DNA of 64,000 nt from a virus, in the IMG/VR virus record IMGVR_UViG_3300045747_000527, positions 1 through 64,000 of that record. One strand, 5' to 3'. Position 1 is the first letter of the stretch. Each line of letters opens with the position of its first letter. The notes below the pieces were generated by a model, which saw only the letters and a list, made by a program, of their open reading frames with translations, did not search any database and was not told where the DNA came from. The translations under genes and the position numbers were made by a program. Shown here one piece after another: positions 456-54,654 of the stretch.

Positions 456-456
456 C

Positions 457-901: not shown

Positions 902-916
902 TAAAGGAGAAACCAA

Positions 917-1922: not shown

Positions 1923-1928
1923 ATTCCG

Positions 1929-1955: not shown

Positions 1956-1979
1956 TTTGTGAAATGTTCACCGCAAGAA

Positions 1980-1987
1980 GGTATAAG
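1980..1987 (+). promoter_or_regulatory. GGTATAAG promoter-like motif
   Basis: Intergenic, upstream of ATG 2012; GTGAAA 17 nt before TATAAG. Confidence 0.7.
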
Positions 1988-2011
1988 AGATCTGACGATT
2001 GGAGATAGACC

Positions 2012-2868: not shown

Positions 2869-2902
2869 CAGTCACGAGCAGAGAAAGTCTGATCAAGATA
2901 CG

Positions 2903-2910
2903 GGTATAAG
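2903..2910 (+). promoter_or_regulatory. GGTATAAG promoter-like motif
   Basis: Intergenic, upstream of small ORF 2950; GAGAAA 18 nt before TATAAG. Confidence 0.7.
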
Positions 2911-2949
2911 TATAGTGATCAGGCAGAAACGCCTAGAAAGGAGATTCTC

Positions 2950-3069
2950 ATGCGCGGATTCAGTCATGGATACGTGTCGAGCCTTCTGCTTGTGTGCTTC
3001 CTCTTGCTCGGCATCGCAATGGTCTGTGAGAAGGAAGAGGAAGCTGAGAACGGATTCGAGCCCCGCTAA
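2950..3069 (+). CDS. small single-pass membrane protein (39 aa; not in ORF track)
   Basis: AAAGGAG RBS; MRGFSHGYVSSLLLVCFLLLGIAMVCEKEEEAENGFEPR*. Confidence 0.65.
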   Translation: MRGFSHGYVSSLLLVCFLLLGIAMVCEKEEEAENGFEPR

Positions 3070-3085
3070 ACCAGAAAGGATCAAA

Positions 3086-3436
3086 ATGCCCTACGTATGT
3101 GCGACCTGTCAGAAACCCAGGAAGAGAAACCAAATGCGCATGGCCAGCGGTACTAAGCCGACTAAGTACTGCAAGACCTGCGTGAAGGAGAAGATCAACG
3201 CCGCCCGCGCAAAGGCCCCTGAGCTGCCGAACATGGAAGACGTGAATAGCGCCCTCCAGTTGAGCAACGGCGACTCAGCCCTACTCATGTCCCACGCCAC
3301 CAAGGTCGTGGACTTCTTCGCCGCTCAGGATGAAGTGGTGCGCGAGATCAAATTCGTGTACGAGCCCCATGGGGACGGTTCCCAAATACTCCGCCGCGTG
3401 GAGGCTGTGACGGTCAAGCACAGGCAGTACGCATGA
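3086..3436 (+). CDS. hypothetical protein with N-terminal CxxC...CxxC zinc finger
   Basis: Start MPYVCATC after AAAGGA; CATC...CKTC. Confidence 0.7.
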   Translation: MPYVCATCQKPRKRNQMRMASGTKPTKYCKTCVKEKINAARAKAPELPNMEDVNSALQLSNGDSALLMSHATKVVDFFAAQDEVVREIKFVYEPHGDGSQILRRVEAVTVKHRQYA

Positions 3437-3822
3437 GCGAGCTCACCACAGTCCAGCTCAAGTTCGCAAAGTACGTGGACTTCAGGAAGTGCGAGTACAC
3501 ACACTGGAAGGAGAATGCTGCTCGCACCGCACTCTTGAAAGCAAGTGAATGCGCGCTGTTCATCAGCAATAACGGCCAGCTGCTGCGGTTCGTTTGGAAA
3601 CCCAGAACGCTAGCCAACCTGGCGTTCGAAGGGTCGCAGGATACTGTCGTGTCCTCGCGACTGTTTCGCATCACCAGGAAAGACGGGGACTCTCCGGGTC
3701 ACTGGAGTCCTTACATGCTCCAGAACTACGCAGAAAGCGAAGGCCTGAAACTCGAAGGATACAAGACCTTCGCGGAACACTTCAACCGAATGCAGGAACT
3801 GAAGAAGAAACCAAGAGAGTGA
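3433..3822 (+). CDS. hypothetical protein
   Basis: 129-aa ORF with ATGA overlap to the previous gene. Confidence 0.7.
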   Translation: MSELTTVQLKFAKYVDFRKCEYTHWKENAARTALLKASECALFISNNGQLLRFVWKPRTLANLAFEGSQDTVVSSRLFRITRKDGDSPGHWSPYMLQNYAESEGLKLEGYKTFAEHFNRMQELKKKPRE

Positions 3823-3829
3823 TCTTGGG

Positions 3830-3855
3830 GAGAAAGGCCCTCGCTTTCTCTAGCC
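3830..3855 (+). terminator. hairpin terminator with TAGCC tail
   Basis: GAGAAAG-gccctcg-CTTTCTC then TAGCC; same loop as 1929-1955 with a compensatory base-pair change in the stem. Confidence 0.7.
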
Positions 3856-3875
3856 GTAAAACGATCTCAGATAAC

Positions 3876-3883
3876 GGTATAAG
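3876..3883 (+). promoter_or_regulatory. GGTATAAG promoter-like motif
   Basis: Intergenic, upstream of AAGGAGG RBS and GTG 3914. Confidence 0.7.
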
Positions 3884-3913
3884 TACTCTGTCACCAACCT
3901 AAGGAGGACTACC

Positions 3914-4429
3914 GTGTCTAACAGCTACTACCAGTTCTGCGTAGAGATCGAAAACCTGGGCGTCAGACAAGTGAAGTGGCTCAACAAGCTTCTTACTTTC
4001 GTCACCCCAGAAAAAGAAGAGGAACAAACTTATGACTTCATCTGCAGGGAACTAGGGCTAACCCCACGAGAGGTGGCGGATTGGATCAGCTTCCCCGACT
4101 TTGAGTGGAGGGTTATGCCGGGACATACCCAGCGGAGTCGAGCCAGTATTGTCATGTACTCCAACGAAAACGGCAGCCTGGAACAGGTGGCGCTCGTTGC
4201 CCATGCCTTACTCAAGAAGTTCAACCGCGATGACGTGCTCTGGTTCACCGCAGCCGCTACATCCTCGAAGTCCCGCGTGAACGAATTTGTCGGAGACTCA
4301 GTCTGGGTCACCAAAAGAGGTTGCTACTGGAGTAATCCAGTAGAACGTGCGATACACGACGCCCTCAAATCACAGGAAGATCAAACTGTCGAGTTCGAGG
4401 AAATGACCGTCAGTATCCACATCAAGTAG
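3914..4429 (+). CDS. hypothetical protein
   Basis: 171-aa ORF with strong RBS AAGGAGG. Confidence 0.75.
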   Translation: MSNSYYQFCVEIENLGVRQVKWLNKLLTFVTPEKEEEQTYDFICRELGLTPREVADWISFPDFEWRVMPGHTQRSRASIVMYSNENGSLEQVALVAHALLKKFNRDDVLWFTAAATSSKSRVNEFVGDSVWVTKRGCYWSNPVERAIHDALKSQEDQTVEFEEMTVSIHIK

Positions 4430-4439
4430 GAGTCAGAGA

Positions 4440-4658
4440 ATGCCCCAACAGTACATACTATTCGAAGAAGCAGAAGCAGTGCACGATACCGACGACGGCC
4501 TGAAAGTGAGCATCGGCGGTGGTGAAGCCATCTGGATACCAAAGACCGCTATCCACGAGGATTCTGAAACCTACAAAAAAGGTACCTCGGGAAATCTCAT
4601 CATCGCCAAGTGGCTGGCAGACAAGAACAAGTTGGAAGGGGAGGACTATGGCCTATAA
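4440..4658 (+). CDS. hypothetical protein
   Basis: 72-aa ORF, AGGAG RBS. Confidence 0.7.
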   Translation: MPQQYILFEEAEAVHDTDDGLKVSIGGGEAIWIPKTAIHEDSETYKKGTSGNLIIAKWLADKNKLEGEDYGL

Positions 4659-4917
4659 GAAAGGACAGTACGTCCGCTCCCGCGGCGGCTACCCAGCCCG
4701 TGCCCTGGGCTACAACACTCTCTGCCTGCGTATGACCCAAGACGGCAAATTGCTGCTGGATAGCATACGTCAAAACGACGTGACCGTGCGGCCGAACCAA
4801 GTGCCTACCATGGAACAGGTTGACGAGTTCTTGCGTACCCACGGAGACGCCCACACAGCCTCCCTATCCTTCGCAGAAGCGATGATTGCCCCATCCCGAG
4901 GCATCCGTAAGGCCTAG
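4648..4917 (+). CDS. hypothetical protein
   Basis: Start MAYKKGQY after GGAGG (within track ORF 4519..4917). Confidence 0.65.
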   Translation: MAYKKGQYVRSRGGYPARALGYNTLCLRMTQDGKLLLDSIRQNDVTVRPNQVPTMEQVDEFLRTHGDAHTASLSFAEAMIAPSRGIRKA

Positions 4918-4962
4918 TCACCCCGCCTCGCTAATGCACGCGGAAGAGGGGTAGGATATTTG

Positions 4963-4970
4963 GGTATAAG
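4963..4970 (+). promoter_or_regulatory. GGTATAAG promoter-like motif
   Basis: Intergenic, upstream of ATG 4996. Confidence 0.7.
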
Positions 4971-4995
4971 GTAGGTAGAAAGGAAACGGTGCATT

Positions 4996-5247
4996 ATGTG
5001 TGAACACCAGTGTGCTTGTCCTCTTTGCGTCACTGAACGTGGCATTCAGACTTCAAGGCTGGAGCTTGTGGGGCTGGTTCGAGGATCTTCGGCGTGGCTT
5101 GCTGCTCGGGAAAAGTTGGAGACCTTCACAAAGATCCAAGCGATGCTCCACCAGTACATCGACGCTCGACAGATAGCCTTTCACGAAGCAGTGGAGTGTG
5201 GGGGCGTCCCAAGTGCTGGCGGTGGCCCCTCAGATCGCGCGAACTAA
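4996..5247 (+). CDS. hypothetical protein
   Basis: 83-aa ORF between a promoter motif and a terminator; N-terminal Cys/His cluster. Confidence 0.6.
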   Translation: MCEHQCACPLCVTERGIQTSRLELVGLVRGSSAWLAAREKLETFTKIQAMLHQYIDARQIAFHEAVECGGVPSAGGGPSDRAN

Positions 5248-5253
5248 GAGCCT

Positions 5254-5285
5254 GCACACACGAAAGTGTGTGCTTTCTCTTGCCC
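5254..5285 (+). terminator. hairpin terminator with TTTCTCTTGCCC tail
   Basis: GCACACA-cgaaag-TGTGTGC then TTTCTCTTGCCC. Confidence 0.7.
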
Positions 5286-5312
5286 ATGATCGGCAAAACT
5301 CCAGTAGCACAA

Positions 5313-5320
5313 GGTATAAG
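5313..5320 (+). promoter_or_regulatory. GGTATAAG promoter-like motif
   Basis: Intergenic; GGCAAA 17 nt before TATAAG; upstream of AAGGAGG RBS. Confidence 0.7.
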
Positions 5321-5351
5321 TACCTTGATCTAGTTACGTAAGGAGGATTTC

Positions 5352-5567
5352 TTGCCAACCTACAGAGTCAACCAATTGAACACGAAGACAAAGAGCTGGT
5401 CCACCGCTGGCTCCGTTATCGCGAACTCCTTCCTAGAAGCAGTGTCGCAAGTACTCCAGAGCTTCGCAGGTATGAGAGTGCGGAGATCTAAAACGGGCTT
5501 CACCGTAAAGGAGGCTGGAGTCAAGGTCATTGTGACTGAGGATCAAAGTGCCGTCACAGGAAAGTAG
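5352..5567 (+). CDS. hypothetical protein
   Basis: 71-aa ORF, TTG start after AAGGAGG. Confidence 0.65.
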   Translation: MPTYRVNQLNTKTKSWSTAGSVIANSFLEAVSQVLQSFAGMRVRRSKTGFTVKEAGVKVIVTEDQSAVTGK

Positions 5568-5697
5568 CTGGAGTCATCTGCCCGTCCTCATCCTATTCCT
5601 GTTCAGTCTATTCATGCTGACTTGGCGGGTGGTGTATCCAGAGGACTTTAAGTGCAGCGGCCAAGATTGCCTGATTACTCATCCGAACGAACCCTAG
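5548..5697 (+). CDS. small membrane protein (49 aa; not in ORF track)
   Basis: GTG start after GAGG; MPSQESSWSHLPVLILFLFSLFMLTWRVVYPEDFKCSGQDCLITHPNEP*; fills the gap before 5705. Confidence 0.55.
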   Translation: MPSQESSWSHLPVLILFLFSLFMLTWRVVYPEDFKCSGQDCLITHPNEP

Positions 5698-5704
5698 GAG
5701 ACCC

Positions 5705-5995
5705 ATGGCCTACATCATTGGTGCGCTAACTAGCAAAGAAAAAGCCACCCTCCGTAAACGTGGGTGGGACGTAGAACCGATCACACCGGTCACGCTGGCA
5801 GAGCTCAACAAAAAGTGCCTGAGCTTGGTGTTTGTAGACAGCAGCATGTTCAATGTCATGTCAGGACCAAACTGGGATAAGGGGAATCTCGATGAAAGTA
5901 CTGCTCAAAACCGACCTGGGAGATATCGAGCTCTGCGACTGGAGACGCGAGTTAGTAGACGCCTGCCACGAAATCTTCGGAGAAAAACCAAATGA
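5705..5995 (+). CDS. hypothetical protein
   Basis: AGGAG RBS; ATGA overlap with the next gene; the C-terminal half overlaps an alternative ORF starting at 5892. Confidence 0.55.
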   Translation: MAYIIGALTSKEKATLRKRGWDVEPITPVTLAELNKKCLSLVFVDSSMFNVMSGPNWDKGNLDESTAQNRPGRYRALRLETRVSRRLPRNLRRKTK

Positions 5996-6288
5996 GCCAA
6001 ATCAACCTGCCCAAAGACCCCCTGAACGAGTTCACCCCAAAGCCCGCGACAAGACACCCGCTCCTAGTGTGCCCAAGGTGCCCAAACGACGACGTAACTA
6101 AGTTCTCCGCGAGAGAGAGCAACATCTTCAACGTCATGAAGGTTACTCCGGCGGGTGGTAAGCTACTTCTCGAACTCAAGGAGAACATACTTGACGACGC
6201 GAAGTACACACTATTCTGCGAAAGGTGTACCTGCGAGTTCAAGGTTGACTTCGACGACCTGATTTTCGACGAAGCCCAAGTAGAGTAG
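5992..6288 (+). CDS. zinc-ribbon protein
   Basis: CPRC...CERC pairs. Confidence 0.7.
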   Translation: MSQINLPKDPLNEFTPKPATRHPLLVCPRCPNDDVTKFSARESNIFNVMKVTPAGGKLLLELKENILDDAKYTLFCERCTCEFKVDFDDLIFDEAQVE

Positions 6289-6297
6289 AGTCGGACC

Positions 6298-6519
6298 ATG
6301 AGCATCAAAGATCTGTGGTCCCATGTACGAGGTTACGCACACCTCGTGCGCAGCACAATCAATCGCCTCGTGTTCAAGGGCTGGAGCAGAGACAGAGAGT
6401 ACTACTCCGTCTCCCTGTTCCGCTTTGAGGTGCGCCGATGGAAACAGACCAAGCGGTGGGACATCATCCTGTGGTGGCCCAAACTTCGCGTGATCAAAGG
6501 AAAGGTAGAAAGACCATGA
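6298..6519 (+). CDS. hypothetical basic Trp-rich protein
   Basis: 73-aa ORF with ATGA overlap to the next gene. Confidence 0.6.
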   Translation: MSIKDLWSHVRGYAHLVRSTINRLVFKGWSRDREYYSVSLFRFEVRRWKQTKRWDIILWWPKLRVIKGKVERP

Positions 6520-6899
6520 GAAAGCCTAAGCAACCGCCGGCTCAGACAATCTGCTGCCCGCGATGTAACACATCCAGTACGTGCGAACCGCACCAGTTAG
6601 CAGCCTTCAGCGTAGTGCAGCCACAAGAACTCGTCTGCCCGGTGTACCTAGTCGGTGGCCTACCCATGGTTGACCTGGACGAGGAGACCTTGCAAGAGGG
6701 CGCAAGCCACAAACTGCTCTTGTGTGATCATTGCGGTCACCTATTCCGGCTACCAGACTGGATGAGTGATACTGTGTACCGCACGGACAACGCGTCCATG
6801 AGAGACCACCCAGCAAGAGAAATCGCTGCAGCAAGAGAACACCTACACAACGTACTGAGGGAAAGGAACAAGACCTGTGGGAAAAACAAGAAGGCCTAG
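6516..6899 (+). CDS. zinc-ribbon protein (probable paralogue of 5992..6288)
   Basis: Start MRKPKQ; CPRC...CDHC. Confidence 0.65.
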   Translation: MRKPKQPPAQTICCPRCNTSSTCEPHQLAAFSVVQPQELVCPVYLVGGLPMVDLDEETLQEGASHKLLLCDHCGHLFRLPDWMSDTVYRTDNASMRDHPAREIAAAREHLHNVLRERNKTCGKNKKA

Positions 6900-7170
6900 C
6901 CGAGACGACAGAGAGTACGAGACCTTTGCCGGGTGGAATCCATCCTCGCGAGGATGCTCCGGCCCTCCCCTGCCGACAACACAGCCAGTAGCGCCAGTCA
7001 CCGTCCCTACCGGCATTGATCAGACGCATAAGTGCGCGGATTGCCCTAACACGTTCGTGTTCACTGCCATCGATCAAGTTTTCTTCGCAGAGAAGCAGCT
7101 ATCTCCTCCACGACGCTGCCGCGAATGTCGTGCCAAACGACGCGCAGCCCGAGAAGCATCTCGAACCTGA
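6877..7170 (+). CDS. protein with C-terminal zf-trcl-type zinc ribbon
   Basis: CADCPNTFVFTAIDQVFFAEKQLSPPRRCRECR matches CxxC-x3-FxF-x3-(E/D)Q-x-F-x7-P-x-RCxxCR; start uncertain. Confidence 0.7.
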   Translation: MGKTRRPSRDDREYETFAGWNPSSRGCSGPPLPTTQPVAPVTVPTGIDQTHKCADCPNTFVFTAIDQVFFAEKQLSPPRRCRECRAKRRAAREASRT

Positions 7171-7191
7171 CACAAACACCTTTGATCTGAG

Positions 7192-7199
7192 GGTATAAG
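7192..7199 (+). promoter_or_regulatory. GGTATAAG promoter-like motif
   Basis: Intergenic; CACAAA 17 nt before TATAAG; upstream of ATG 7240. Confidence 0.7.
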
Positions 7200-38135: not shown

Positions 38136-40184
38136 CTACTGTGCGTCGCTGTCTACTGTCTTCAGCCCCGCCACCACTTTGTCTAGGTGAACAAGAGACC
38201 GCTGGATGGCGCCCTCGTCTACAGAGTGGAGCCCAAGTCTGGCCGCGACTAGCAACTCTGCCAGCCGGCGGATGACGGTCTCAATCTCAGGGATGTAGCT
38301 GGCGAACACAGCCACGTTCTCGGGGGTGATGAACCCGAGAGACAGTATCTTGTCCACCGCAATAGGATCGTCGATGGCCGTCGCCTCTTTGAGAAGGATG
38401 TGGTCCGTGCCGCCCCGAACAGCAGACACTTTGTTGACCACCGCTTCGGCTACCTTGGGCATTCCCGTCGGCGCCATCGCCACAGGGCGTGCCTTGAACC
38501 AGCCATCGTAGCTACCCTTCTTCCGCATAGAAGACAGGTCTGCTGCGAACTTCACCGGGTCCTGCCCCAGCACCGCACCCAGGAAGATAGCCTCGTCTTT
38601 GGAGACATCGTTGGTGCGCAGAACACCAGCCAACTTGTCGATGGGCTGGCCGTCAAAGGAGAACCGCCTACCGTCTTGATCGGTGAACACGCGCACAGCC
38701 ATGGGAAGAACACGTGCCTGGGCCACCTTGCTAGCCTCGTCCACGGCCGCCTCTTCCGTAGGCCCGCCCATGATCTCTACGTCCTCACCCCAGGGGGCGA
38801 ACTTAGCCTCAGCAGGGACACCAAACGTGGTGGCATCGATCTGAGAAACCGCCTGCAGACCTGGCACCTTGCGCACCAGAAATTGCTGACCCATGCTGTC
38901 CGTGCAGCGGAAAGCCAGGGCACCGCCCATGACGACGGAACCATCCACAGAGACTGGCGCCAAGGCAATTGGCCCATCAGGTGCCTCAAAGTAGAAGACG
39001 CCCTCACCCACTGGCGGAACGTCCAAGGGCTGCTCCGTAGTCTCCAGGGGGGAGCCAGCCATGCCGCTACCCATCGCGGAGAACTCACCATCCGTGAAGA
39101 GCATGGTGGACAGCTCGCTACCATCCCAGTCCACTACGTGGGGGAATACCCACCCCGTCAGCGCCATGTTATCCGGCTGTGCACTCACCCGGTATTTGCC
39201 GAACTGCTGGATGAGCTGGAAGGGCTCGGCCTGTGCCAGGTCTTGCTGCTGCTCTGGTGGACCCGCGGTGGCCTGGCCGTTTTGGTCTGCTTCGTTGACC
39301 ATCTCCGGGCCCAGGGCCTGGGTAGCCTCTGGCCGTGAGACATCAGCCTGCGCCGGGGGCGCCATAGAATCAGGATTTGCCATCTTGATCCTGTACCCTT
39401 CTGCCAACTTCAGAAGTTGAACGACAGTACGTTCGCCAACTTCCAGTGCACCGGCAGAGGCCACTTTACGTGTCCCCTCACCTGCATGCATGAGGGTCTC
39501 GATAAAGTGCGCCATGGCCCCATTGTGCACAGCCGCGTGTCCTATGGCCGCGTCCTTCTCCAACAAGCCGATCATGGAGGCCACGTCCGCGCGCTGAACG
39601 GACGGCATGAGCGCGTCCATGAGATACTCAGGCTTAGCCGAACCCTCTTTGCTCGCACCTGACGAACCGATGTCCGCCATGAGGGGACCGCGGGCACCAC
39701 CGTACTGACGATGAGGCGGGTAAAGCTGTTCGATCATACTCATATCGCCAGGCCGCTCACGCACAGCCTCGAATAGCTGCGGGCGGAACATGGCACGGCG
39801 CAGACGCTCTTCTGTCAGCGGCTCGGTCTTGCCGTCAGAGAGGAGGAGGTCCAAGGGCTTCATCCTGCCATCCTGTACGATGACTGGGATGCACGCCTTC
39901 TGACTTCCCTTGAGCGCGGCAGGTGTCGAGTCATCCCGCGGGTTGATGGCGAGCTTGTTGCTCAGCTCCACCTGTCCCAGGGCATACCGCCTGTCTGCAT
40001 CCACCGTGGGAAGGACCACCTTGGGGCTAAAGTCGCTGGTATAGGGCACCTGGCGCAACAGTTCGTCGAGAATCTGTGTCGGCCAATCGTTGGGGTCCTC
40101 GCTCAGCATGACTTCCATGCCCAGCTTTTCAAACTTCAATTCCGTATCGAGGTATAGCTCCATGTGATCCCTCTCGTTAGTCAC
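38136..40184 (-). CDS. large putative virion/head assembly protein
   Basis: 682 aa; EKLG, KEGSA, KVAS, KVAQ, KVAE, KEAT motifs. Confidence 0.65.
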   Translation of the reverse strand: MTNERDHMELYLDTELKFEKLGMEVMLSEDPNDWPTQILDELLRQVPYTSDFSPKVVLPTVDADRRYALGQVELSNKLAINPRDDSTPAALKGSQKACIPVIVQDGRMKPLDLLLSDGKTEPLTEERLRRAMFRPQLFEAVRERPGDMSMIEQLYPPHRQYGGARGPLMADIGSSGASKEGSAKPEYLMDALMPSVQRADVASMIGLLEKDAAIGHAAVHNGAMAHFIETLMHAGEGTRKVASAGALEVGERTVVQLLKLAEGYRIKMANPDSMAPPAQADVSRPEATQALGPEMVNEADQNGQATAGPPEQQQDLAQAEPFQLIQQFGKYRVSAQPDNMALTGWVFPHVVDWDGSELSTMLFTDGEFSAMGSGMAGSPLETTEQPLDVPPVGEGVFYFEAPDGPIALAPVSVDGSVVMGGALAFRCTDSMGQQFLVRKVPGLQAVSQIDATTFGVPAEAKFAPWGEDVEIMGGPTEEAAVDEASKVAQARVLPMAVRVFTDQDGRRFSFDGQPIDKLAGVLRTNDVSKDEAIFLGAVLGQDPVKFAADLSSMRKKGSYDGWFKARPVAMAPTGMPKVAEAVVNKVSAVRGGTDHILLKEATAIDDPIAVDKILSLGFITPENVAVFASYIPEIETVIRRLAELLVAARLGLHSVDEGAIQRSLVHLDKVVAGLKTVDSDAQ

Positions 40185-41340
40185 TGATCAGAACTTTTCT
40201 AGATAGCATAGCAGGCGTTGGCGGGTCTACCTTGATTCCCACCGTCGCGAGTGTTGTCACAAGGTTCAGCAGCCATGGCACTACGATATCACCATGCAGG
40301 GCGGGATGAGAAGCGTTTGGGCCGCCAAGAAATAAAGCAGAGGCCCCGATTGTCTTCACCCCTGTCCAACTCTCAGTGCTTCCTCCTCCGCCACTGATCT
40401 TATGTTCGCCAGAGATGTCTGTGCTCTGTGAACCTTTCACCGTCGTGGTGTGGTCCTTTCCAACTGACAGAGAGCAGTTCCCTGAGATGGTATTAGTCTG
40501 ATCGCCGCCTACCTCGACTGTCAGATCTGAGGAGTACTTCGTGTACCCGACGCCGGTATTGAAGACTCGCATGACATAGGCTGGCTTCGCACTGATAGTC
40601 TCGCCGGTCGTGGGGTTTATCCCACCCGCAGCCACTACTACTTCGTAGTCTGCACCAGACTTGGCAACCGTACCTACACTGATACGAACTGACGCCTTCT
40701 CATCCTGAGCAGCTTCTCTCGCGATAAGATCGAACTGTACCGCCTGGTGTTGGTTGTCCGGTCCTGTGTCTGCGACCGCAGCTCGCCAGGTCATTGAGCC
40801 ACCAACTGTGTCAAGTTCCCAGTTCTCGCATACATCCCGGATAAGGTTGTTGAGTGGAATGAAGAGGCGCTGACAGATGTCAGAGGCCCCAATCTGCAGA
40901 ACACCACCACGACGCAGGACTAGGAAGTTGTCATCCCTTCCCTGGATATATAGATCTCCAGGGTTCAGAAGAGGTCGTCCAGCGTTGTACCCGCCCATCG
41001 AAGGCTGGTCTGCCGACTGTGGAGAGCCTGATGCCACTGTCATAGCCGGCTCCGGTGGCTCCAAGAATCCCATAACAAACGGAGCCTCCCCGTCTGCTGG
41101 CCAACATACGGCGCAGATAGCACCAAGGTCTGGTATGACCGTGAACCCTTCACCGTTGTTGTAGTGTAGGTACGGGGAGGATACCTGAATACCGGGAACC
41201 AGACGTCCAGTGTACTGTGCTGCCCAGTCCACGGTCTTGTTGACTGGGTTGACGTTAACGATCAACCCAGTTTCTACCCGCGTCTCTCCCGTTACGGTAG
41301 ACGATGCCCTGGAATTACCGAAGCTATACGCGCCAGCCAT
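40177..41340 (-). CDS. tail spike / baseplate puncturing protein (gpV/gp5/VgrG-like)
   Basis: N-terminal OB-fold-like GLIVNVNPVNKTVD...GEGFTVIPDLGAICAV; C-terminal beta-helix repeats VGGDQTNTISGNCSLSVGKDHTTTVKGSQSTDISG. Confidence 0.7.
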   Translation of the reverse strand: MAGAYSFGNSRASSTVTGETRVETGLIVNVNPVNKTVDWAAQYTGRLVPGIQVSSPYLHYNNGEGFTVIPDLGAICAVCWPADGEAPFVMGFLEPPEPAMTVASGSPQSADQPSMGGYNAGRPLLNPGDLYIQGRDDNFLVLRRGGVLQIGASDICQRLFIPLNNLIRDVCENWELDTVGGSMTWRAAVADTGPDNQHQAVQFDLIAREAAQDEKASVRISVGTVAKSGADYEVVVAAGGINPTTGETISAKPAYVMRVFNTGVGYTKYSSDLTVEVGGDQTNTISGNCSLSVGKDHTTTVKGSQSTDISGEHKISGGGGSTESWTGVKTIGASALFLGGPNASHPALHGDIVVPWLLNLVTTLATVGIKVDPPTPAMLSRKVLISD

Positions 41341-44300
41341 CAGTACTCTCCTGGCTTGCCCCTACCAAACTCTGCGGCATAGGCGATGGCAGGGATCGGG
41401 TGTGGGCCGTGAATGTGGGAAGTCCAGCCACGTTGAGCGGCGTCTATGACGGTATCATGCAGCCGCTCATGGTTGAGTTTCGCCATCCAATCTTCTTGAA
41501 CTTCCAGAGGCATCATGTCCACCCCCTTCAGCAAAGGCTTGTGAAGCACTGGCTTCTGCCCCACGGCAAGGGACCTGTTGTGCGCCACCACCTGAGATGT
41601 CGGAGCATAGTCGCCCCGAATGAAGTGGGTAGAAGACCCTGGGTGCAACACCTCCGTAAGATTGGTGACCGCCTTCACCACCACCTCAGCATTCCGCCGT
41701 CTGATGCCCTCACTCTTGTACCGGTCATACAATGCCCCTGCTAGATGTCCCTGTGTGTGCTCGATGCCGGTGAGCTCCAGCAACTCGTGCGGATTGACGG
41801 GCCCTCCAGAAATGGCACTCCCCTTCTTCACATCCATCCCCTTCTTGAGCGGTGACCCGTCGTACATAGGTACGCCGCGCGAGTTGGGAACGTAGTGGCG
41901 GCGACCATCAACGATCACGTCATGACCACCAGCCGGGTCCTTCCGTATCTCCTCCACCTTTCCAGTGACAGCACTGAGCGTAGCCGAACCAGGCAATACC
42001 TTCGGCAAATTCAGCAGGTCCTGCACCTGCTGGAAATCATCCGTGAGACCAGACTTGGACGCAGCCGATCCGCCCGTATGAAAGGCCTTCATGGCGAGCT
42101 GAACCGACCTCTCACCCAACGCCTGACCTGCGAGGATGCCGATGTTCGTCCCCACTGGCGGCAGATGACCGTCACTGTCCAGCCCGAAACACTTCTGGCA
42201 AATACCGGGGCCGTGCAAGCAGCGCAGCGGTGACCTGACCACTACCTTGCCTACCTTATTGTTGCGAAGAGTACTTTTGATCTCAGGAGTTATCAGTGTT
42301 CCAGCCGGGAGGGTTCGGCTGCCAACCTTGATGGGCGCTGCTGTGTACCGGTCAAGTATGTCCCTCTCGTCCACGTCCAAAGAGATACCCTTGTCAGTGC
42401 CGCAGTCATTGTCCTTCACCAGCGTGTCCATCGTGGTGTTCATGACCATCTTGCTGATGTACCCAGGCTCGCTGACCGATTGCACCTTTTGGATCGCCCC
42501 TTTACGAGCGCCGCTCACCGACGTCCAGTACTCTGATACGTCCAAGCCTTCTGCATATGACTTGCGGATAGGCGTGGGGAGCACACGCCCCTTGGCGTCC
42601 ATGACCAGCATCGGAGACATCTTGATCTGACGGAGAGTATCCATACCGGGCTTGACCCCTGCACGGTGCATGGTCATCAAGTTGCTGCTCTCGTCCGTCA
42701 TCTTATCCAGGGCCGCGTGCATCGTCTCTGTAGCCTTCGTGTACGCAGCGATACTGTGCGCGTCTCGTTTCTCCGCGGAGCCTGTGCCCTTCTTGGCCTC
42801 AATATCTGCAACCGCGAGTATCTTGTCCCGCAGCGCTCGGTCTGGGGTCACATCTGACAACCCAAGGGAGAACGAACTCTGAGTAGACCACGCGTTACCT
42901 AGGTCCTTCAGCTTGTTGACGACAACCCCGTACTCGTTCTTGTGCTCCCGTGCCAGCTTGTCCAGCAGCGCATCCTGTGCCTTGCCGTTCAGTACGGATG
43001 TGCTGGTGAGAACCTCCTTGCGCATAACCTCCGGCAGTGCACCAGCCAATAGGAAACGCCCAACCGAAGCCTTGATACCAGAGATTGTGATCACATCATT
43101 CAGGCGCGCTTCCCCCTTTCGTACGGCAGTCTCCACCTCCTGGATGGTCTTGAACGACTTGCCAGTATCCGTGCCGGCTTTCGATATGCCGTACAGGCCC
43201 AGCTTCATCTCGTGCGTGGGTGAGTACATCACCCTGCCCGTAGACGGGCTAAACAGATTGTGGGAGGGCATCATCCCCCGCGCCTCTGTTACCGCCTGTG
43301 CTGACACAGGAACGAACGCACCCATGGCATCACCGTCGAAGTCTGCGTTGAATCCCGACGTAACCAACGGGTGTATCTGGATGGTACGCCCGCTCACGAT
43401 GCGTGGCTTGAACGCCTGCACACTGTATTTGTGCAAGACCGGGTCTCTTTTCACCAAGATAGGTCGGTCAGAGATGACCCGCTCTAGCGCGCGATCAACC
43501 ATCTCTCCGCCCTTCTCAATCTGCGCACGGGCTGCCAGTGGAGAGATGCCCTGCAAGTTGCGCAACTCCTTGATGATGAACGGTTTGTAGAGCTCGATAG
43601 CCGCGGGCTTAGGGATACCCACCTCGTCCAGACCCAGTGAAGGTTCGGGTACGATGGTGGAGCGCATCGTTAGATCTTGCTTCCGCTGTATCAGCTTGCT
43701 CTGGAAGAAGCCCTGTTTCGGCGCACCAGACTTCTCCCCTGTCTCAGTATCCACCACTCGCTTGCCGGCTATGATGTCCAAGATGCCGCGACGAACCTGC
43801 TTAGGGTACCCGCCAATACCAGTCAGGGCGTGCAGACCATCGTGGATTTCCTCACGCAAAGCAACCTTCGCCTCATCATCGTCCGGGATAAGCGGCGACA
43901 TCTCCTTGTACTTCTGCGAAGACAGGTGAATGTACTTGTACAACCCGTTCAGATCATCCTCGCTGATGCGCTTGCCATCCGAGACAGAAAGCGGCCGCAT
44001 AGCCGGGGGCAAGATGGGCACGTGGCTCATCATGTACGCATCTTGCGGAGTCAGCTTTGCCCTCTGAAGGGCAGTCAAGAACTTGATCGTCTTGTTCGCG
44101 TCGTCCAGCTTGGCCCCCTTCAAAGCGGGCTTCTCAATCTCAAGCCGAGCAGCCGCGAGTGCCTTGTCCACGCTGATGTTACCAAGCAGGTGGTTCACTG
44201 CCTTGCCGCCCACCATTGCCCCTGGAGATTCTACGGGAACTACCTTGCCTGTCTTATCCACAGCGACTCGGCCGGCGACCAAGTCAGTGTACGTGGTCCC

Positions 44301-47300
44301 CTTCATGCCGAGTAACGTACGAGTTGCTCCCGCGAACAGAGGATTGGGGAACGGCTCCGGCAAAGTCATGTGCGACCACATGGTGCCGTCCAAGCCGCCG
44401 GTAATCCGCGGGTCGAAGAGGCCATCCTTTTCGGGCACCATGTTCTTTGCGCGGACCCATTTGGCAGGGTTTTTGATCTCCCCGTTACTCTGCTCTAAAA
44501 CCTGCTTGTCCGTCATCGGCACCATCGTGAGGTTGCTGCCCTCCTTCTTGACGTTGACCCCGACACCCTTCAGGTACGCCATGAACTTGTTGTAGGAGAA
44601 CGTAGGCCGCGGAGCCGGAAGCATCTCACCTGCCTGAAGGGCATGCCAAAACTGGTCGTGCTGACCTGCATCGCTCTTCATCGTGTACATCTCGCGCAGG
44701 TTATGGACCGCGCCATGGGCCAACATGGCGTACAACCCTAGCGCGCCCAGCGACTGGGCTCCGTGTGGGCCACCGCCCTTAGGCACCATACTGCTGTCGT
44801 AGGCGTAGCCGGGGCCGCCGGCGCGAGCAATCATCTTCTTGTCCACCTGGTGAACCAGCTTGACGATGTGTTGTGGGCCCACCAGCACCTGACCCATGAC
44901 CTTCCCGGTCGTAGGGTCTACTATGTCCTCCTTGTCCGGAAGTCCGTGCGCCTTGAGCTCGTCTGTGACTTTTTGGTGCAGGTCTACGCCAGGCTCGAAG
45001 TTCTTAATGAAGTAGGTCTTGCCGGTCTTCTCTGCAATCTTTCCGGCAGAGACCTCCAACAGCTGTCCCAAGTTAGTGCGGCCGGGAACACCTGCAGGGT
45101 TAAGTAAGATCTCCGTGGGCCTGCCATCCAAGGTATGTGGCATCTCGTGATCGGCAAGGATCTTAGTCACGATCCCCTTGTTTCCGTGGCGACCTGCTAA
45201 CTTATCCCCGACCTCCATAGGTTGGAGTGTCTTCACGTGGACCGCCACAGCGTGGCCTGTCTTGGACACCTCCTGGACGATACCTGGGTGGTCTGCCTCC
45301 CACTTCATCGAGACGTCCTTGAACGGCTTAACGATGGACTTGTGCAGCTTGGACAGGTCCGCGTCTTCCCGGCGCTCGTTTTCGTTCTTCTGCTGAAGGG
45401 CAGCGATCAATGTGTCGCCTGGCATGACGATGTGTCCTTCGCGAACAACGCCGTCATCATCCAGCTTATCCGCCTGCTCCTTGTTCAAGGCCGCGGGTGC
45501 ATAGGCACGAAACTTCCTCTTGTCTAGGACATGCCCGGTATCCCGGCTGATCTCATGGCGGTACAAGTGCTCTGAAGACAGCTTCTTCGCCGCGGTCTCG
45601 CTGATGACAACGCCGTCCTCGAAGTTGTATCCCTTGTACGGCATGTAGGCCACGCGCAGATTAGTGCCCAGCGCCAGGTTGCCGCCCTTAGTGTAGTTGG
45701 TGTCCGCTACCACCTGGCCCTTCGTAACCTTGTCGCCTACTCCTACAAGAGGCTCTGAGTGGATGAACACACGGTCCGTGTTCAGTGGGAAGTTATCGTA
45801 GAGCTGGACCTCATGCTTCTTCCCCTTGACGTCCTCAATGATAATCCCGTCCTTCTTGATCTTGGTGACGACACCATCATGCTGGCTGTTGTGACTAGCG
45901 TACGCGCCCACTATCCTCTCGAAGCTGTCCTTACCCGCCAGGCTCTGCACCAGGGGCGCTTCCCTATCCTTCAGAGAGATGGCTTGCTCCATGTGCCGGC
46001 CCGCCATAGTAGTACGGTTAGGGTGGTCTGCTCCCATGAACGGGATCATATTAGTGGACGTAGAAAACAGCTGGATCGGGTCAAGCATAACGTAATCCGC
46101 TTCGTGCAGAGGCGCAGATACGATTTCGTTACCCACGCCACTCATGCGGATGTTCTTGGCTACCGCTACCGGCTTGCCCTTAGCCCACGTAACCTGATCT
46201 GGCAGCACCACCTTGGTGCGCATGACCTGACTAGGTGTGATCTCAGTCTGCTTGCCCGTCTTTGTGTCATAGACCCGCATGGTAATATCGTGGCCGCGCT
46301 TGCTGATACCTACGGGCATTCGCAAACTGATGCCGACATCCTGTCCTTCGGACGTGTGCAGCGGGTCCATGAACCCCATGTGTGACGGGTCTACTAGCTT
46401 AGCGTCGTCCGACACAACGTGAAAATCTGAGATGCCTCCCTTACCCATGATGGTGGTTTTCATCTGGTTAGAGATCATCTCAAGCGGGTTCAGCTGACTG
46501 GGTGTGTTTGCCAAACCGCTGTTGCCCGTGAACAAGGACCTTACGGACTTGTTGAACACGTCGGGGCCAATGATATCGCGGATGCCTCTGTCTGGTCGGT
46601 CGATGGTGTTCTTGACCTTACGTGTGATCTCTCTGGCTCCGTTCTGTACCCGCTCCGCCACAAAGTCCTCCACAGAATGCAGGTCCTTGAACATGAGTGA
46701 GTCGCGCGGGTCAGACTTGGCTGTGCCGCGGGAGATGCCTAACAGCTTATTCGACGCCGCTAAGATCGCTTCCCCACTAGCATTCGCGTATGGATGCCCG
46801 AGGGTGACCTGGTTGACGTCAGGGCGCGATCCAGTGTTCTGGAACACCTCCTGGGTAACAGACTGTGCTGTCTCGGGGTTAGGCGCCTTTTGCCCCGTAG
46901 CTATTTCGTGGAATCTAGACAGAGTCTTGTTCGCGTCAGCTGCGTTCGCGTCTACGATCTCCTTACCCCAGTGTTTCTCAAGTTCATCTGGGTGAATCCC
47001 CAGACCCTGTAGCATCGGAGCCAACGGCAGGTGCTTGCCCTCGTACTCCATCTGGAACTTCTTGCTCTCGGGATCGAAGTGCAGCTTGAACGGGCGCCCC
47101 TTCACTCCGGCAGTGTTGAAGCTGGTCTCCAACGACCCGTCATCCTTGACCATGGAGTATGCACCAGCCTTCAAACGCCACTGGTTGTCTACCTGGTACT
47201 CCTTGCCATCGATAATGTGGCTGAGCCTGCGCGTACTCTTGGGCAGGTCCATCAGCTTGATCTTCTTTTTCTCGATAACGTGGCCAGTAGCGTTATCCTT

Positions 47301-47519
47301 CAGAGCAATCGTAGCCTGCACCGGCACGGTCCAGCTTTTCCCCTGAATCTTGGCTTCCTTCTGCGACCGGATATCATCCAGGTCCAGGTTGTCTGGGATG
47401 CTGATATCGTGAAGCTCAAGAGTTCGCGTGTTCCCTATGATGGGGAAGATGCTCTTGGTTGCCTCAGTTACCTTGTCCTTCAGTACGGTGAAACCAGTTT
47501 CTGGGTTTAGACGCGCCAT
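41340..47519 (-). CDS. rpoBC: DNA-directed RNA polymerase, single-chain beta-beta' fusion (2059 aa)
   Basis: beta motifs PFMGADHPNR..MAGRHMEQA and GDKLAGRHGNKG; beta' motifs KRDPVLH, NADFDGD (43329-43349), GARKG, GERSVQLAMKAFHTGG and a C-terminal 4-Cys zinc site. Confidence 0.95.
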   Translation of the reverse strand: MARLNPETGFTVLKDKVTEATKSIFPIIGNTRTLELHDISIPDNLDLDDIRSQKEAKIQGKSWTVPVQATIALKDNATGHVIEKKKIKLMDLPKSTRRLSHIIDGKEYQVDNQWRLKAGAYSMVKDDGSLETSFNTAGVKGRPFKLHFDPESKKFQMEYEGKHLPLAPMLQGLGIHPDELEKHWGKEIVDANAADANKTLSRFHEIATGQKAPNPETAQSVTQEVFQNTGSRPDVNQVTLGHPYANASGEAILAASNKLLGISRGTAKSDPRDSLMFKDLHSVEDFVAERVQNGAREITRKVKNTIDRPDRGIRDIIGPDVFNKSVRSLFTGNSGLANTPSQLNPLEMISNQMKTTIMGKGGISDFHVVSDDAKLVDPSHMGFMDPLHTSEGQDVGISLRMPVGISKRGHDITMRVYDTKTGKQTEITPSQVMRTKVVLPDQVTWAKGKPVAVAKNIRMSGVGNEIVSAPLHEADYVMLDPIQLFSTSTNMIPFMGADHPNRTTMAGRHMEQAISLKDREAPLVQSLAGKDSFERIVGAYASHNSQHDGVVTKIKKDGIIIEDVKGKKHEVQLYDNFPLNTDRVFIHSEPLVGVGDKVTKGQVVADTNYTKGGNLALGTNLRVAYMPYKGYNFEDGVVISETAAKKLSSEHLYRHEISRDTGHVLDKRKFRAYAPAALNKEQADKLDDDGVVREGHIVMPGDTLIAALQQKNENERREDADLSKLHKSIVKPFKDVSMKWEADHPGIVQEVSKTGHAVAVHVKTLQPMEVGDKLAGRHGNKGIVTKILADHEMPHTLDGRPTEILLNPAGVPGRTNLGQLLEVSAGKIAEKTGKTYFIKNFEPGVDLHQKVTDELKAHGLPDKEDIVDPTTGKVMGQVLVGPQHIVKLVHQVDKKMIARAGGPGYAYDSSMVPKGGGPHGAQSLGALGLYAMLAHGAVHNLREMYTMKSDAGQHDQFWHALQAGEMLPAPRPTFSYNKFMAYLKGVGVNVKKEGSNLTMVPMTDKQVLEQSNGEIKNPAKWVRAKNMVPEKDGLFDPRITGGLDGTMWSHMTLPEPFPNPLFAGATRTLLGMKGTTYTDLVAGRVAVDKTGKVVPVESPGAMVGGKAVNHLLGNISVDKALAAARLEIEKPALKGAKLDDANKTIKFLTALQRAKLTPQDAYMMSHVPILPPAMRPLSVSDGKRISEDDLNGLYKYIHLSSQKYKEMSPLIPDDDEAKVALREEIHDGLHALTGIGGYPKQVRRGILDIIAGKRVVDTETGEKSGAPKQGFFQSKLIQRKQDLTMRSTIVPEPSLGLDEVGIPKPAAIELYKPFIIKELRNLQGISPLAARAQIEKGGEMVDRALERVISDRPILVKRDPVLHKYSVQAFKPRIVSGRTIQIHPLVTSGFNADFDGDAMGAFVPVSAQAVTEARGMMPSHNLFSPSTGRVMYSPTHEMKLGLYGISKAGTDTGKSFKTIQEVETAVRKGEARLNDVITISGIKASVGRFLLAGALPEVMRKEVLTSTSVLNGKAQDALLDKLAREHKNEYGVVVNKLKDLGNAWSTQSSFSLGLSDVTPDRALRDKILAVADIEAKKGTGSAEKRDAHSIAAYTKATETMHAALDKMTDESSNLMTMHRAGVKPGMDTLRQIKMSPMLVMDAKGRVLPTPIRKSYAEGLDVSEYWTSVSGARKGAIQKVQSVSEPGYISKMVMNTTMDTLVKDNDCGTDKGISLDVDERDILDRYTAAPIKVGSRTLPAGTLITPEIKSTLRNNKVGKVVVRSPLRCLHGPGICQKCFGLDSDGHLPPVGTNIGILAGQALGERSVQLAMKAFHTGGSAASKSGLTDDFQQVQDLLNLPKVLPGSATLSAVTGKVEEIRKDPAGGHDVIVDGRRHYVPNSRGVPMYDGSPLKKGMDVKKGSAISGGPVNPHELLELTGIEHTQGHLAGALYDRYKSEGIRRRNAEVVVKAVTNLTEVLHPGSSTHFIRGDYAPTSQVVAHNRSLAVGQKPVLHKPLLKGVDMMPLEVQEDWMAKLNHERLHDTVIDAAQRGWTSHIHGPHPIPAIAYAAEFGRGKPGEY

Positions 47520-47654: not shown

Positions 47655-47662
47655 GGTATAAG
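47655..47662 (+). promoter_or_regulatory. GGTATAAG promoter-like motif
   Basis: Intergenic, divergent from the RNAP gene; CTGAAA 18 nt before TATAAG. Confidence 0.7.
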
Positions 47663-48846: not shown

Positions 48847-50862
48847 CTAAACCAGCGCGGCCTCTACACCGCGTCTCGGAGCTCTCTGCTGTGGCAGGGG
48901 TCTCGCTGAGGCGGAAGAGGCTGCGCTGGGGCCGTTACCCCCACTTGCCATTAGCCCTAGTACGGCGCTGTAAAGCTCCGGGCTCGCTGTCTGCAGACGC
49001 CCCAGCACCTCCTGTCGGTTACCCATAGGCACCTGGGCCACTCTGTCCGCCAGCTTACGTGCTGTCACCAAGAGCTGAGCGTCAGCTCCTGACCCGCCGG
49101 AAGGTGCACTCTGGAGTTCGAGCGGAGACTTCACAGCCTTGGGCATATCTAGGACTGTGGGGTCCCGCGGCGTAGGCTGCAGGTCCGGGTTCTCTGGCTG
49201 TGGCTGCCCAGTCTGAGCTGCCATCTGGTGATCCATGATGTCCTTCTGGACCTCAGCCTGGAACGCACCCTGATCTTTGTTGGCCTCATTCTGCAGAGCC
49301 AACTGTTCAGCCATCGCCTTATTCTGCGCCTTGGTCTGCCACTTCGAGGTAACCATCGCAGCCTCGCCTTCGATGTCTGCCTGAAGCAAACGCTGCTTCT
49401 TGGTGACGTTCGCGCGACGAGCCGTTTCCATCTCCAGAATCTTGTCCTCTTTCTGAGAATCAAGATCTGCGTCTGCCAGCAAAGTTTCGTCAGACACCTT
49501 GCCTGCTTGTGCGAGCTGGAAGAGGTACGCCTTGCGCTGAAGATCGTCCGCCATCTTGAAAGGCTTGAACCGGGCACGAACCGGGGCCCACCCCAAGTAG
49601 GAAGATGTGCGCTCAATGATCCAATGGAGCAGCGTCTTGTGGTCTGTCAGATAGCCAAGGTGCATGTTCTCCAACATGCGCATGCTGACGTTGGAGCCGC
49701 TGTACGAGAGACCACCAAAGATCAGCTCTACAGGCACGCCCATGCCCGCGATGATGTGCTCCGACCACACACGAATCTCCTGGCTAAGGAGCATCGCCCG
49801 GCCGTCACCACCGATGGTCTGCTGCCCGATGGGCAGAGACATGATCGGAATATAGTTGTTATCCGCACGCCACTGCCGAATCTCCTGTGCCACCTGATCT
49901 CGCCAGTCAGCCAGGTTCACGCTGGAGTACGGGTCAGACGAGGCAGAGCCAGCCTGCGGGAACAACACGCGCAAAGGAACGATGTGCTCCATCGCGATGC
50001 TCTCCTGTGCCTTGCGAAGAATCTGCAGGTAGAAGGTGTCCTTCAGTACCGGCAAGATCATAGGCGTTCCCCAGCCGCGGTCCTTGCCCGCGAGAGTTGG
50101 ACGCTTGAAGTGGAAGATATTGTCTCGGCTGAAGACGACTGCTTTCTTTAGCCTAAGCGCCTCGATGAACAGCTGTGGCACCGTCTCAACCGCGGACTTC
50201 TTGCCGATAATGACGTCGTTCTTCAGCTGCACCGGGATGGTGTAGTAGTACTCGTACTCGCCGTTGATGTCATTGTACCGAATGTCCACGTCCTCCGGGT
50301 TCCACCGGATAAGCCGGATACCCTTCGCCGCCTTGACGTAGTGGTCCCGCACCTTGCACGGCCCCATCTCGCCGCACTTCGGGCAGTTCCAGTGGAACTC
50401 GAAGTTCATGAACCGGTAATCTGCGTGAGCCGCTTCCTTCTCGTAGTTGCAGTTCTTGCAGATTAAGATCTTAACGAACGGGTAAAAGATGCTGACCAGA
50501 GCGTTGCCGTAGACGTAGTAGTCCAGGCCAACCTCTATCTGAAACGCACGGTAGCGCAGCTGCTCACCCAGGAAGGCAGACCACCGCTCTTTGTGCTCCA
50601 GCCTGTCCGTATCCAGGATGATATCTGTGACTGGGTACTCGGCCATCTTGGAGGCCACTGTGTTGATCAGCGGGTTGACCAAGAAATAGTACCGACACCA
50701 CCGGAACATCTGCTTGACGGTGGCCGGCAGGTACGTCTGACCAATGTCAAAGAATGGACTCGGGTATTGGAGACCCTGGTCGCCCGAGCCCCCGATGCGT
50801 CCGCGAGTACGAGAGAACCTAAGTGCGGAGGACGCGAGGTCCCCAGAACCCATGAGGGCCAT
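48847..50862 (-). CDS. portal protein
   Basis: WCRYYFLVNPLINTVASKMAEYP, YYVYGNA, IFHFKR...WG.PMI, IIAGMGVPVELIFGG.SYSG portal-type motifs; 671 aa. Confidence 0.8.
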   Translation of the reverse strand: MALMGSGDLASSALRFSRTRGRIGGSGDQGLQYPSPFFDIGQTYLPATVKQMFRWCRYYFLVNPLINTVASKMAEYPVTDIILDTDRLEHKERWSAFLGEQLRYRAFQIEVGLDYYVYGNALVSIFYPFVKILICKNCNYEKEAAHADYRFMNFEFHWNCPKCGEMGPCKVRDHYVKAAKGIRLIRWNPEDVDIRYNDINGEYEYYYTIPVQLKNDVIIGKKSAVETVPQLFIEALRLKKAVVFSRDNIFHFKRPTLAGKDRGWGTPMILPVLKDTFYLQILRKAQESIAMEHIVPLRVLFPQAGSASSDPYSSVNLADWRDQVAQEIRQWRADNNYIPIMSLPIGQQTIGGDGRAMLLSQEIRVWSEHIIAGMGVPVELIFGGLSYSGSNVSMRMLENMHLGYLTDHKTLLHWIIERTSSYLGWAPVRARFKPFKMADDLQRKAYLFQLAQAGKVSDETLLADADLDSQKEDKILEMETARRANVTKKQRLLQADIEGEAAMVTSKWQTKAQNKAMAEQLALQNEANKDQGAFQAEVQKDIMDHQMAAQTGQPQPENPDLQPTPRDPTVLDMPKAVKSPLELQSAPSGGSGADAQLLVTARKLADRVAQVPMGNRQEVLGRLQTASPELYSAVLGLMASGGNGPSAASSASARPLPQQRAPRRGVEAALV

Positions 50863-54646: not shown

Positions 54647-54654
54647 GGTATAAG
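54647..54654 (+). promoter_or_regulatory. GGTATAAG promoter-like motif
   Basis: Upstream of the replication block; GGCAAA 17 nt before TATAAG. Confidence 0.7.

Follow-up and report, generated by a model that had tools for sequence, protein, structure and literature searches.

We identified a gene for a single-chain beta-beta' RNA polymerase (RNAP) in a 64,000-nucleotide stretch of viral DNA (the window), which is the first 64 kb of the 191,220-bp IMG/VR virus record IMGVR_UViG_3300045747_000527. CheckV rates the record as complete, and its source is an uncultured tailed phage with a genome of 191 kb. A GAGGAG Shine-Dalgarno sequence lies 4 nt 5' of the ATG of the polymerase gene. At the other end, the TGA stop codon of the gene overlaps the start codon (ATG) of a gp5-like spike gene. 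The gene and its parts, all on the minus strand, are listed below in window coordinates.

41340..47519, minus strand: single-chain beta-beta' RNAP core gene; uninterrupted open reading frame (ORF) with an ATG start, 2059 amino acids
44535..47519, minus strand: beta module, residues ~1-995, with Rpb2_3, Rpb2_6 and Rpb2_7 and without the enterobacterial insertions
41343..44531, minus strand: beta' module, residues 997-2059, beginning at the equivalent of enterobacterial beta' residue ~19
44361..44423, minus strand: site of the deleted beta' zinc ribbon, GLFDPRITGGLDGTMWSHMTL, residues 1033-1053, where 32 RpoC residues (68-99) are missing
43329..43349, minus strand: catalytic NADFDGD, residues 1391-1397, located by alignment
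42189..42404, minus strand: retained second zinc site, C1706, C1767, C1774 and C1777, corresponding to C814, C888, C895 and C898

Identity of the polymerase

The Pfam domains of the protein run from beta to beta', in the order Rpb2_3, Rpb2_6, Rpb2_7, Rpb1_1, Rpb1_2, Rpb1_3 and Rpb1_5. Rpb2_6, Rpb2_3, Rpb1_2, Rpb1_3 and Rpb1_5 score above their gathering cut-offs, and Rpb1_1 (32.6 vs 39.7) and Rpb2_7 (17.4 vs 32.1) fall below. The best relatives among solved structures are bacterial beta' chains (E 1e-109 to 1e-88), and the best NCBIfam models are those for bacterial rpoBC, rpoC and rpoB. All of these models score far under their equivalog cut-offs; the cellular RpoB model TIGR02013 gives 338 bits against a required 801, and the RpoC model TIGR02386 gives 490 against 964. 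Identity to cellular enzymes is about 27%. The protein carries the two large subunits of a bacterial-type multisubunit RNAP, beta and beta', in one chain.

An earlier reading made from the sequence alone (the sequence-only reading) had described one intact 2059-residue beta-beta' ORF with all core catalytic motifs, and the ORF, the Pfam domains and the aligned motifs bear this out. The strings on which it relied lie where it had placed them, with YNKFMAYLKGVGVNVK at residues 976-991, LTMVPMTDKQ at 997, GLFDPRITGG at 1033 and NADFDGD at 1391. The enzyme is also as compact as had been supposed, at 2059 amino acids compared to 2276-2781 in 22 cellular beta plus beta' pairs.

Anatomy against cellular RpoB and RpoC

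For a residue-level comparison, Salmonella RpoB and RpoC, taken from a mislabelled entry among the phage records, were aligned with 15 members of the family. The C-terminal residues of beta (…GVGVNVKKEGS) align with the last residues of RpoB, and the residues that follow align with RpoC from ~19, so beta and beta' are joined without a linker. RpoC residues 68-99, the zinc ribbon with C70, C72, C85 and C88, correspond to a clean gap in all 15 aligned family members. The sole cysteines of the 2059-residue protein are C1706, C1767, C1774 and C1777, with none within the first 1705 residues. This clean gap and the four matching cysteines bear out the proposal that the N-terminal zinc domain of beta' was deleted and the C-terminal site kept. 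The polymerase is short because the enterobacterial insertions (beta 215-360, 932-1049 and 1126-1195; beta' 950-1193), the zinc ribbon and beta' 126-150 are all absent.

The catalytic parts are preserved. Residues D1393, D1395 and D1397 of NADFDGD are invariant across the family, the GARKG bridge helix and the MKAFHTGG half of the trigger loop are present and conserved, and the beta lysine motif (GxKxxGRHGNKG type) occurs as GDKLAGRHGNKG at residues 771-782 within Rpb2_6, where it is conserved in the family. At the rifampicin-pocket positions 513, 516, 526, 529, 531 and 572, six of six residues differ from Salmonella (residues 329-401 here), and five of the six differ family-wide. The polymerase is therefore predicted from its sequence to be rifampicin-insensitive. 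The C-terminal tail of beta', around which omega wraps in cellular enzymes, is replaced by a short family-specific tail.

An AlphaFold2 (AF2) model of residues 880-2059 reached a predicted local distance difference test score (pLDDT) of 89.6 and a predicted template modeling (TM) score of 0.87. In the model, the junction (pLDDT 90-96) is a beta-hairpin built from the end of beta and the start of beta', and the clamp-helix coiled coil is visible. Foldseek matched the model to the beta' subunits of B. subtilis, S. aureus, C. thermocellum, E. coli and Thermus with an E-value of 1e-68 and TM scores of 0.75-0.79.

A large family of fused phage polymerases

The fusion is not rare, and is more common than the sequence-only reading allowed for. 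A collection clustered at 90% identity returned at least 120 matches, most of ~2030-2080 amino acids or longer with inteins, on contigs of up to 199 kb. In a library clustered at 50% identity, the best 150 representatives all span the beta/beta' junction, down to 37% identity, and lie on phage-sized contigs. The gene was found at 16 IMG/VR loci and on three further phage-sized contigs binned into bacterial metagenome-assembled genomes (MAGs). Those three (L063, L064 and L065; 162-204 kb) were deposited within Leptolyngbyaceae, Bacteroidales and Thermoguttaceae MAGs. They probably represent phage genomes that ended up in host bins, either together with the host or by mis-binning.

The cultured relatives are Salmonella phage Arash and Vibrio phages D69, D148 and D181. 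In Arash and D69 the chain is split inside beta' (1525 + 606 amino acids), at the equivalent of residue ~1480, and the beta/beta' junction is still fused. We built a tree without an outgroup from 50 sequences and 1979 columns (LG+G4, short search), which included 22 cellular enzymes from five phyla. A long branch with full support separates all phage forms from the 22 cellular enzymes. Among the phage forms, the split ones diverge first, and the fused ones cluster in a single supported group. In a search for unfused relatives, most short hits end at contig edges, and two beta'-only proteins on long contigs (P0276 and P0281) nest within the fused clade. Literature phrase searches and term look-ups in reviews returned no description of a fused phage beta-beta' family. 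The polymerase belongs to a very large and barely described phage family.

The polymerase gene is also a hot spot for inteins and homing endonucleases (P0122, P0135, P0031 and others). Homologues reach 4739 amino acids with up to four separate matched stretches, and in D181 and D148 a homing endonuclease is annotated inside the polymerase region. The window copy is free of both.

Sigma factors

No sigma, alpha or omega gene had been recognized in the window, and this holds. Genome-wide, alpha (PF01000, PF01193) and omega (PF01192) genes were likewise not found at E-values up to 1, in a search that was positive in 14 of 14 control genomes. Two sigma70-family genes do lie elsewhere in the genome.

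Genome 118657-119508, minus strand: conserved sigma70-family gene, ortholog of Arash gp10 (E 6e-23)
Genome G000:C1 ~157.9-158.5 kb (L003:1165-1743), minus strand: second sigma gene, FliA/WhiG-like, 192 amino acids, flanked by HNH-endonuclease-like ORFs

The first gene adjoins the ortholog of the Arash virion hydrolase gp8. Its product (P0386, 256 amino acids) matches Pfam Sigma70_r3 at 35 bits, above the cut-off, and regions 2 and 4 were recognized by fold alone. The AF2 model has a pLDDT of 87.6, and its top PDB matches, over ~250 columns, are all sigma factors: SigA, SigB, SigD, sigmaS and WhiG, with 240-275 columns and a probability of 1.00. The product is a three-domain sigma70-family protein with regions 2, 3 and 4 in order. 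The gene is present in Arash and in two complete relatives (G001 and G002). We found 118 homologues, six of them with a longest contig of the same size as those of the fused-RNAP hits. This sigma factor travels with the polymerase across the clade.

We also considered the FliA/WhiG-like sigma as the partner of the polymerase. It was not found in Arash, D69, G001 or G002, and promoters of the sigma28 type (TAAA-N15-GCCGATAA) do not occur in the genome. Missing from the relatives, it was set aside as a lineage-specific extra.

The sequence-only reading had placed the polymerase in an N4/crAss-like transcription program. This does not fit a genome with two sigma70-family genes, one of which is conserved with the polymerase; the program is therefore likely sigma-dependent and bacterial-like instead.

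Promoters and terminators

A second proposal, that GGTATAAG marks promoters connected to the polymerase, fared better. The window contains 12 copies of this 8-mer (0.43 expected), all on the plus strand. Among all 8-mers of the genome it is the most over-represented, with 33 copies (z 22, 28 on the plus strand). A GnAAA element resembling a -35 lies 15 bases 5' of the core and a T-purine step 6-7 bases 3', and most sites are found 18-60 bases ahead of a start codon. It is a real bipartite, strand-biased promoter, with -35, extended -10 and start-site geometry. The window sites include the following.

243..7199, plus strand: seven GGTATAAG promoters before small plus-strand genes, at 243, 1980, 2903, 3876, 4963, 5313 and 7192
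47655..47662, plus strand: GGTATAAG core between the portal and RNAP genes, inside a minus-strand 125-residue ORF and pointing away from the RNAP gene
54647..54654, plus strand: GGTATAAG promoter heading a plus-strand block of replication genes

On the strand of the polymerase gene, GGTATAAG does not occur in the window. Elsewhere in the genome, one of the five minus-strand sites (G000:C1:130542) stands 83 nt before a run of large minus-strand ORFs (~99-130.5 kb) in which both the conserved sigma and the gp8-like hydrolase are encoded. The promoter class is therefore not limited to small early genes.

Related phages share the core or a variant that differs by one base. Arash has the identical GGTATAAG core in 31 copies, 30 of them on one strand; D69 has GTTATAAG, with 18 of 19 on one strand; and G001, a phage with 42% identity, has GCAA-N16-GGCATAA, with 22 of 24 GGCATAA copies on one strand. 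The base at -7 is an invariant G in three of the four phages, where the searched core fixes it, and is T in one of 24 G001 sites. T(-7) is a key contact of sigma70 and one of two bases that are flipped out and bound. Since -7 is rarely or never T at these sites, whereas sigma70 needs T(-7), we infer from sequence that the phage sigma rather than that of the host may read GGTATAAG-type sites, and this is the best available argument for it.

The terminator proposal did not survive in its original form. TAGCCC occurs in 95 copies on both strands and does not behave as a stand-alone terminator. About eight extended sites that combine a hairpin with TTTCTCTAGCC do look like terminators, and these directly precede promoters. 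Related tails are CTAGCC in G001, TTTTTAGC in Arash and TTTTTTAG in D69, and the G001 cassette pairs CTAGCC with GGCATAA. An intergenic cassette consisting of a GC-rich hairpin, TTTCTCTAGCC, GCAAA and the GGTATAAG of the next gene was seen at window positions 1948 and 3849 and at genome positions 90903, 182246, 183569 and 184487.

Nor did a sigma70-like late promoter hold up, as a consensus scan gave 6 hits against 5.6 expected. Upstream of genes that lack GGTATAAG, Shine-Dalgarno words alone were enriched, with no second motif.

Genome setting

The polymerase gene lies inside the virion module, as the sequence-only reading had it, with the portal gene upstream and spike, terminase, protease, capsid and sheath genes downstream.

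48847..50862, minus strand: portal protein gene, upstream neighbor; 33% identity (E 7e-92) to the Arash portal gp204
40177..41340, minus strand: gp5-like baseplate hub/spike gene, whose start codon overlaps the RNAP stop codon
34715..36550, minus strand: large terminase gene, in the same minus-strand structural block

The minus-strand block downstream runs from the gp5-like spike gene to the genes for the large terminase, protease, major capsid and sheath proteins. The portal and RNAP genes are also adjacent in Arash, D69 and L063. The terminase matches PF03237 at 22.7 bits (cut-off 22), and GpA_ATPase scores higher. The capsid protein has no Pfam hit, including to the Gp23 type (PF07068). No second beta/beta' set was found in the whole genome.

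Between the portal and polymerase genes there is a plus-strand cassette of two ORFs (47933-48421 and 48418-48846) with its own GGTATAAG promoter at 47655. For the 125-residue minus-strand ORF (47507-47884), no relative could be detected at the corresponding place in Arash, D69 or L063, and the ORF is possibly not a true gene. As a candidate for a conserved accessory subunit encoded 5' of the polymerase gene it was rejected, because it matches neither Arash gp205 nor D69 0260, which are related to each other at 30% identity. Further along, a 755-residue ORF at window 55058-57325 (plus strand) encodes a ResIII-type superfamily 2 helicase with an HNH-endonuclease intein (Intein_splicing, HNH_3 and ResIII in one ORF).

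A proposed virion-delivered, sigma-dependent polymerase

Taken together, we favor with modest confidence an explanation in which a single-chain core, delivered by the virion, works with a phage sigma factor to read GGTATAAG promoters. The gene encodes the full catalytic core as one chain, trimmed to a minimum and lacking the beta' zinc ribbon, with the C-terminus of beta fused straight to the N-terminus of beta' at the point where the two ends meet in the cellular enzyme. Its action is most likely sigma-dependent and would use the sigma factor encoded at genome 118657-119508 (minus strand). Core and sigma together may recognize GnAAA-N15-GGTATAAG-N5-T(G/A), with transcription starting at the purine. 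The polymerase gene is presumably expressed together with the structural genes, and, judging from its Arash homologue, the enzyme is probably carried in the virion and injected. Once inside, it could transcribe the non-structural genes of the phage without the host enzyme. The Arash proteome makes packaging plausible: mass spectrometry of virions yielded more spectra for gp206 than for any other protein, the major capsid protein included, and also detected gp216 and, with a high count as well, the sigma gp10 (PMC10585845).

Several points weigh against this explanation. The clamp helices and flap tip are weakly conserved with bacterial sequence, so that sigma binding by this core is only predicted. 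The TGGTATAAG sites of Arash and the TGTTATAAG sites of D69 resemble an extended -10, and host sigma70 might read them. Neither the motif search nor the sigma70 consensus scan found a promoter for the operon of the polymerase gene itself. The natural beta-beta' fusion of Helicobacter continues to rely on alpha and omega, and a missing phage alpha gene is therefore no proof of independence from the host. The Arash "virion" proteome comprises 116 proteins, including ribonucleotide reductases and ligases, and its authors warn of carry-over (PMC10585845). For this phage and for the fused members the case is computational.

We considered three alternatives. The GGTATAAG-type sites may be strong extended -10 promoters that the host sigma70 holoenzyme uses early, with the phage polymerase and a phage sigma or other factor acting at other, unrecognized middle or late promoters. 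Many phages start on the host polymerase, and the polymerase gene itself sits in a late-looking operon. A T precedes the core in 24 of 30 Arash sites and in most D69 sites, giving the extended -10 form TG-n-TATAA, whereas the window phage has G before the core at 21 of its 33 sites and T at one. Against host use, position -7, where sigma70 binds T, is G at every site in the three phages with a fixed core, and in the fourth it is T at one of 24 sites. Moreover, the core varies by phage lineage (GGT, GTT, GGC) and not obviously by host, and the search turned up no further enriched upstream motif that could serve the phage enzyme. We consider this alternative unlikely. The enzyme might also not be packaged at all, and might be made during infection for purely intracellular work such as late transcription, its place among structural genes being incidental. 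The Arash particle preparation held many plainly non-structural enzymes (PMC10585845), no packaging signal or propeptide was identified in the polymerase, and the genome has a single RNAP set, compared to the separate virion and non-virion enzymes of phiKZ-type phages. However, the spectral count of Arash gp206 tops that of every other protein, including the major capsid protein. In four divergent lineages the polymerase gene is also a direct neighbor of the portal gene, and here its translation is coupled to that of the spike gene. An enzyme confined to the infected cell seems quite improbable to us.

The most serious competitor concerns alpha. The single chain may still depend on an alpha dimer from the host, and perhaps on omega, for folding or activity, and would then not be a self-sufficient core; the cellular fusions of Helicobacter and Wolbachia keep alpha. 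The full bacterial beta' fold (TM 0.75-0.79) and the similarity to RpoB and RpoC over nearly the whole length of the polymerase are what such dependence would predict. Conversely, the complete 191-kb genome has no detected alpha or omega gene, the site of omega wrapping on beta' has been replaced by the short family-specific tail, and the phiKZ and AR9 enzymes function without alpha. A packaged enzyme that acts on arrival in diverse hosts would also be poorly served by reliance on free host alpha. Dependence on host alpha is in our judgment on the unlikely side, while deserving real weight.

Building on the favored explanation of a virion-delivered core with a phage sigma, a broader reading is possible, which we offer tentatively and with some doubt. 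The clade may represent a portable two-protein transcription system of the bacterial type, in which a single-chain core without a zinc ribbon or a need for alpha and omega would be delivered by the virion with one dedicated sigma. This pair would read a cassette of hairpin, T tract-TAGCC, GCAAA, N15-16 and GG(T/C)ATAA that drifts by single bases between lineages.

Significance

Cellular-type RNAPs are thought to require an alpha dimer as an assembly platform. Those known from phages are broken up into numerous polypeptides (phiKZ, AR9) or are too divergent for easy comparison (crAss, YonO). The fused family is the opposite: near-minimal, alignable with the bacterial enzyme and contained in one chain, with a recognizable sigma and a simple conserved promoter. 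If the polymerase works alone, it would offer a tractable system for the roles of alpha, omega and the beta' zinc ribbon, for sigma-promoter co-evolution and as an orthogonal transcription module. If the two-protein reading is true, the pair would be the smallest known complete cellular-type RNAP holoenzyme and would provide a natural test of the roles of alpha, omega and the zinc ribbon. Because of its size, the fused family can also serve as a marker for a large group of phages of ~160-200 kb.

Comparison with known systems

The closest known enzymes are those of Arash and of Vibrio phages D69, D148 and D181, which fall in the same tree clade with 32-34% identity over 70-91% of the length. 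The Arash RNAP consists of gp206 and gp216, with gp10 as sigma (record OQ632216; PMC10585845). The window polymerase has 34% identity to gp206 and 25% to gp216 and groups as a sister in the tree. Arash and D69 share with the window phage the portal-RNAP synteny, an orthologous sigma, a related promoter core (GGTATAAG in Arash, GTTATAAG in D69) and a fused beta/beta' junction. They differ in the split of the chain within beta' (1525 + 606 amino acids), as the window phage and at least 150 other clusters are unsplit. The Arash paper reports gene annotation and proteomics, and leaves the fusion, the loss of the zinc ribbon and the promoters undiscussed (PMC10585845).

The enzymes of mReC, the multimeric-RNAP-encoding Caudovirales (Weinheimer & Aylward 2020, PMC7481178), likewise come from metagenomic tailed phages, match COG models of beta and beta' and form a clade apart from cells. 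Within the portion of the mReC entries consulted, beta (~1000-1400 amino acids) and beta' (~900-1000 amino acids) are separate in each, and several contigs carry two sets (PMC7481178). The mReC capsid proteins hit Pfam Gp23 (PMC7481178); the capsid protein of the window phage gave no Pfam hit. When the metagenome identifiers of six of the 16 IMG/VR relatives were compared to the mReC tables, one was shared (3300017963), for a different contig (PMC7481178).

The rpoB-rpoC fusions of Helicobacter and Wolbachia have the same order and the same junction logic, with the C-terminus of beta joined to the N-terminus of beta'. Those fusions are cellular, however, at ~2840-2890 amino acids, and come with a zinc ribbon, alpha, omega and host sigmas. 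The window polymerase falls well short of the corresponding fusion equivalogs, NF007172 (543 vs 5372 bits) and NF011417 (466 vs 4632 bits).

The N4 virion RNAP and the crAss-like gp66 are functional analogues, being large single-chain virion polymerases for early transcription. The N4 enzyme is T7-like, and gp66 is a two-barrel enzyme resembling YonO and RNA-dependent RNA polymerases, in which the beta/beta' models detect no similarity. Neither is known to use a sigma70-family factor. The phiKZ and AR9 RNAPs are phage two-barrel relatives of beta and beta' without alpha or omega, and one of their sets is packaged and transcribes early genes. They are made of 4-5 polypeptides, are far more divergent and come in two sets with no recognizable sigma70-family factor, whereas the window phage has one chain, one set and two sigma70-family genes.

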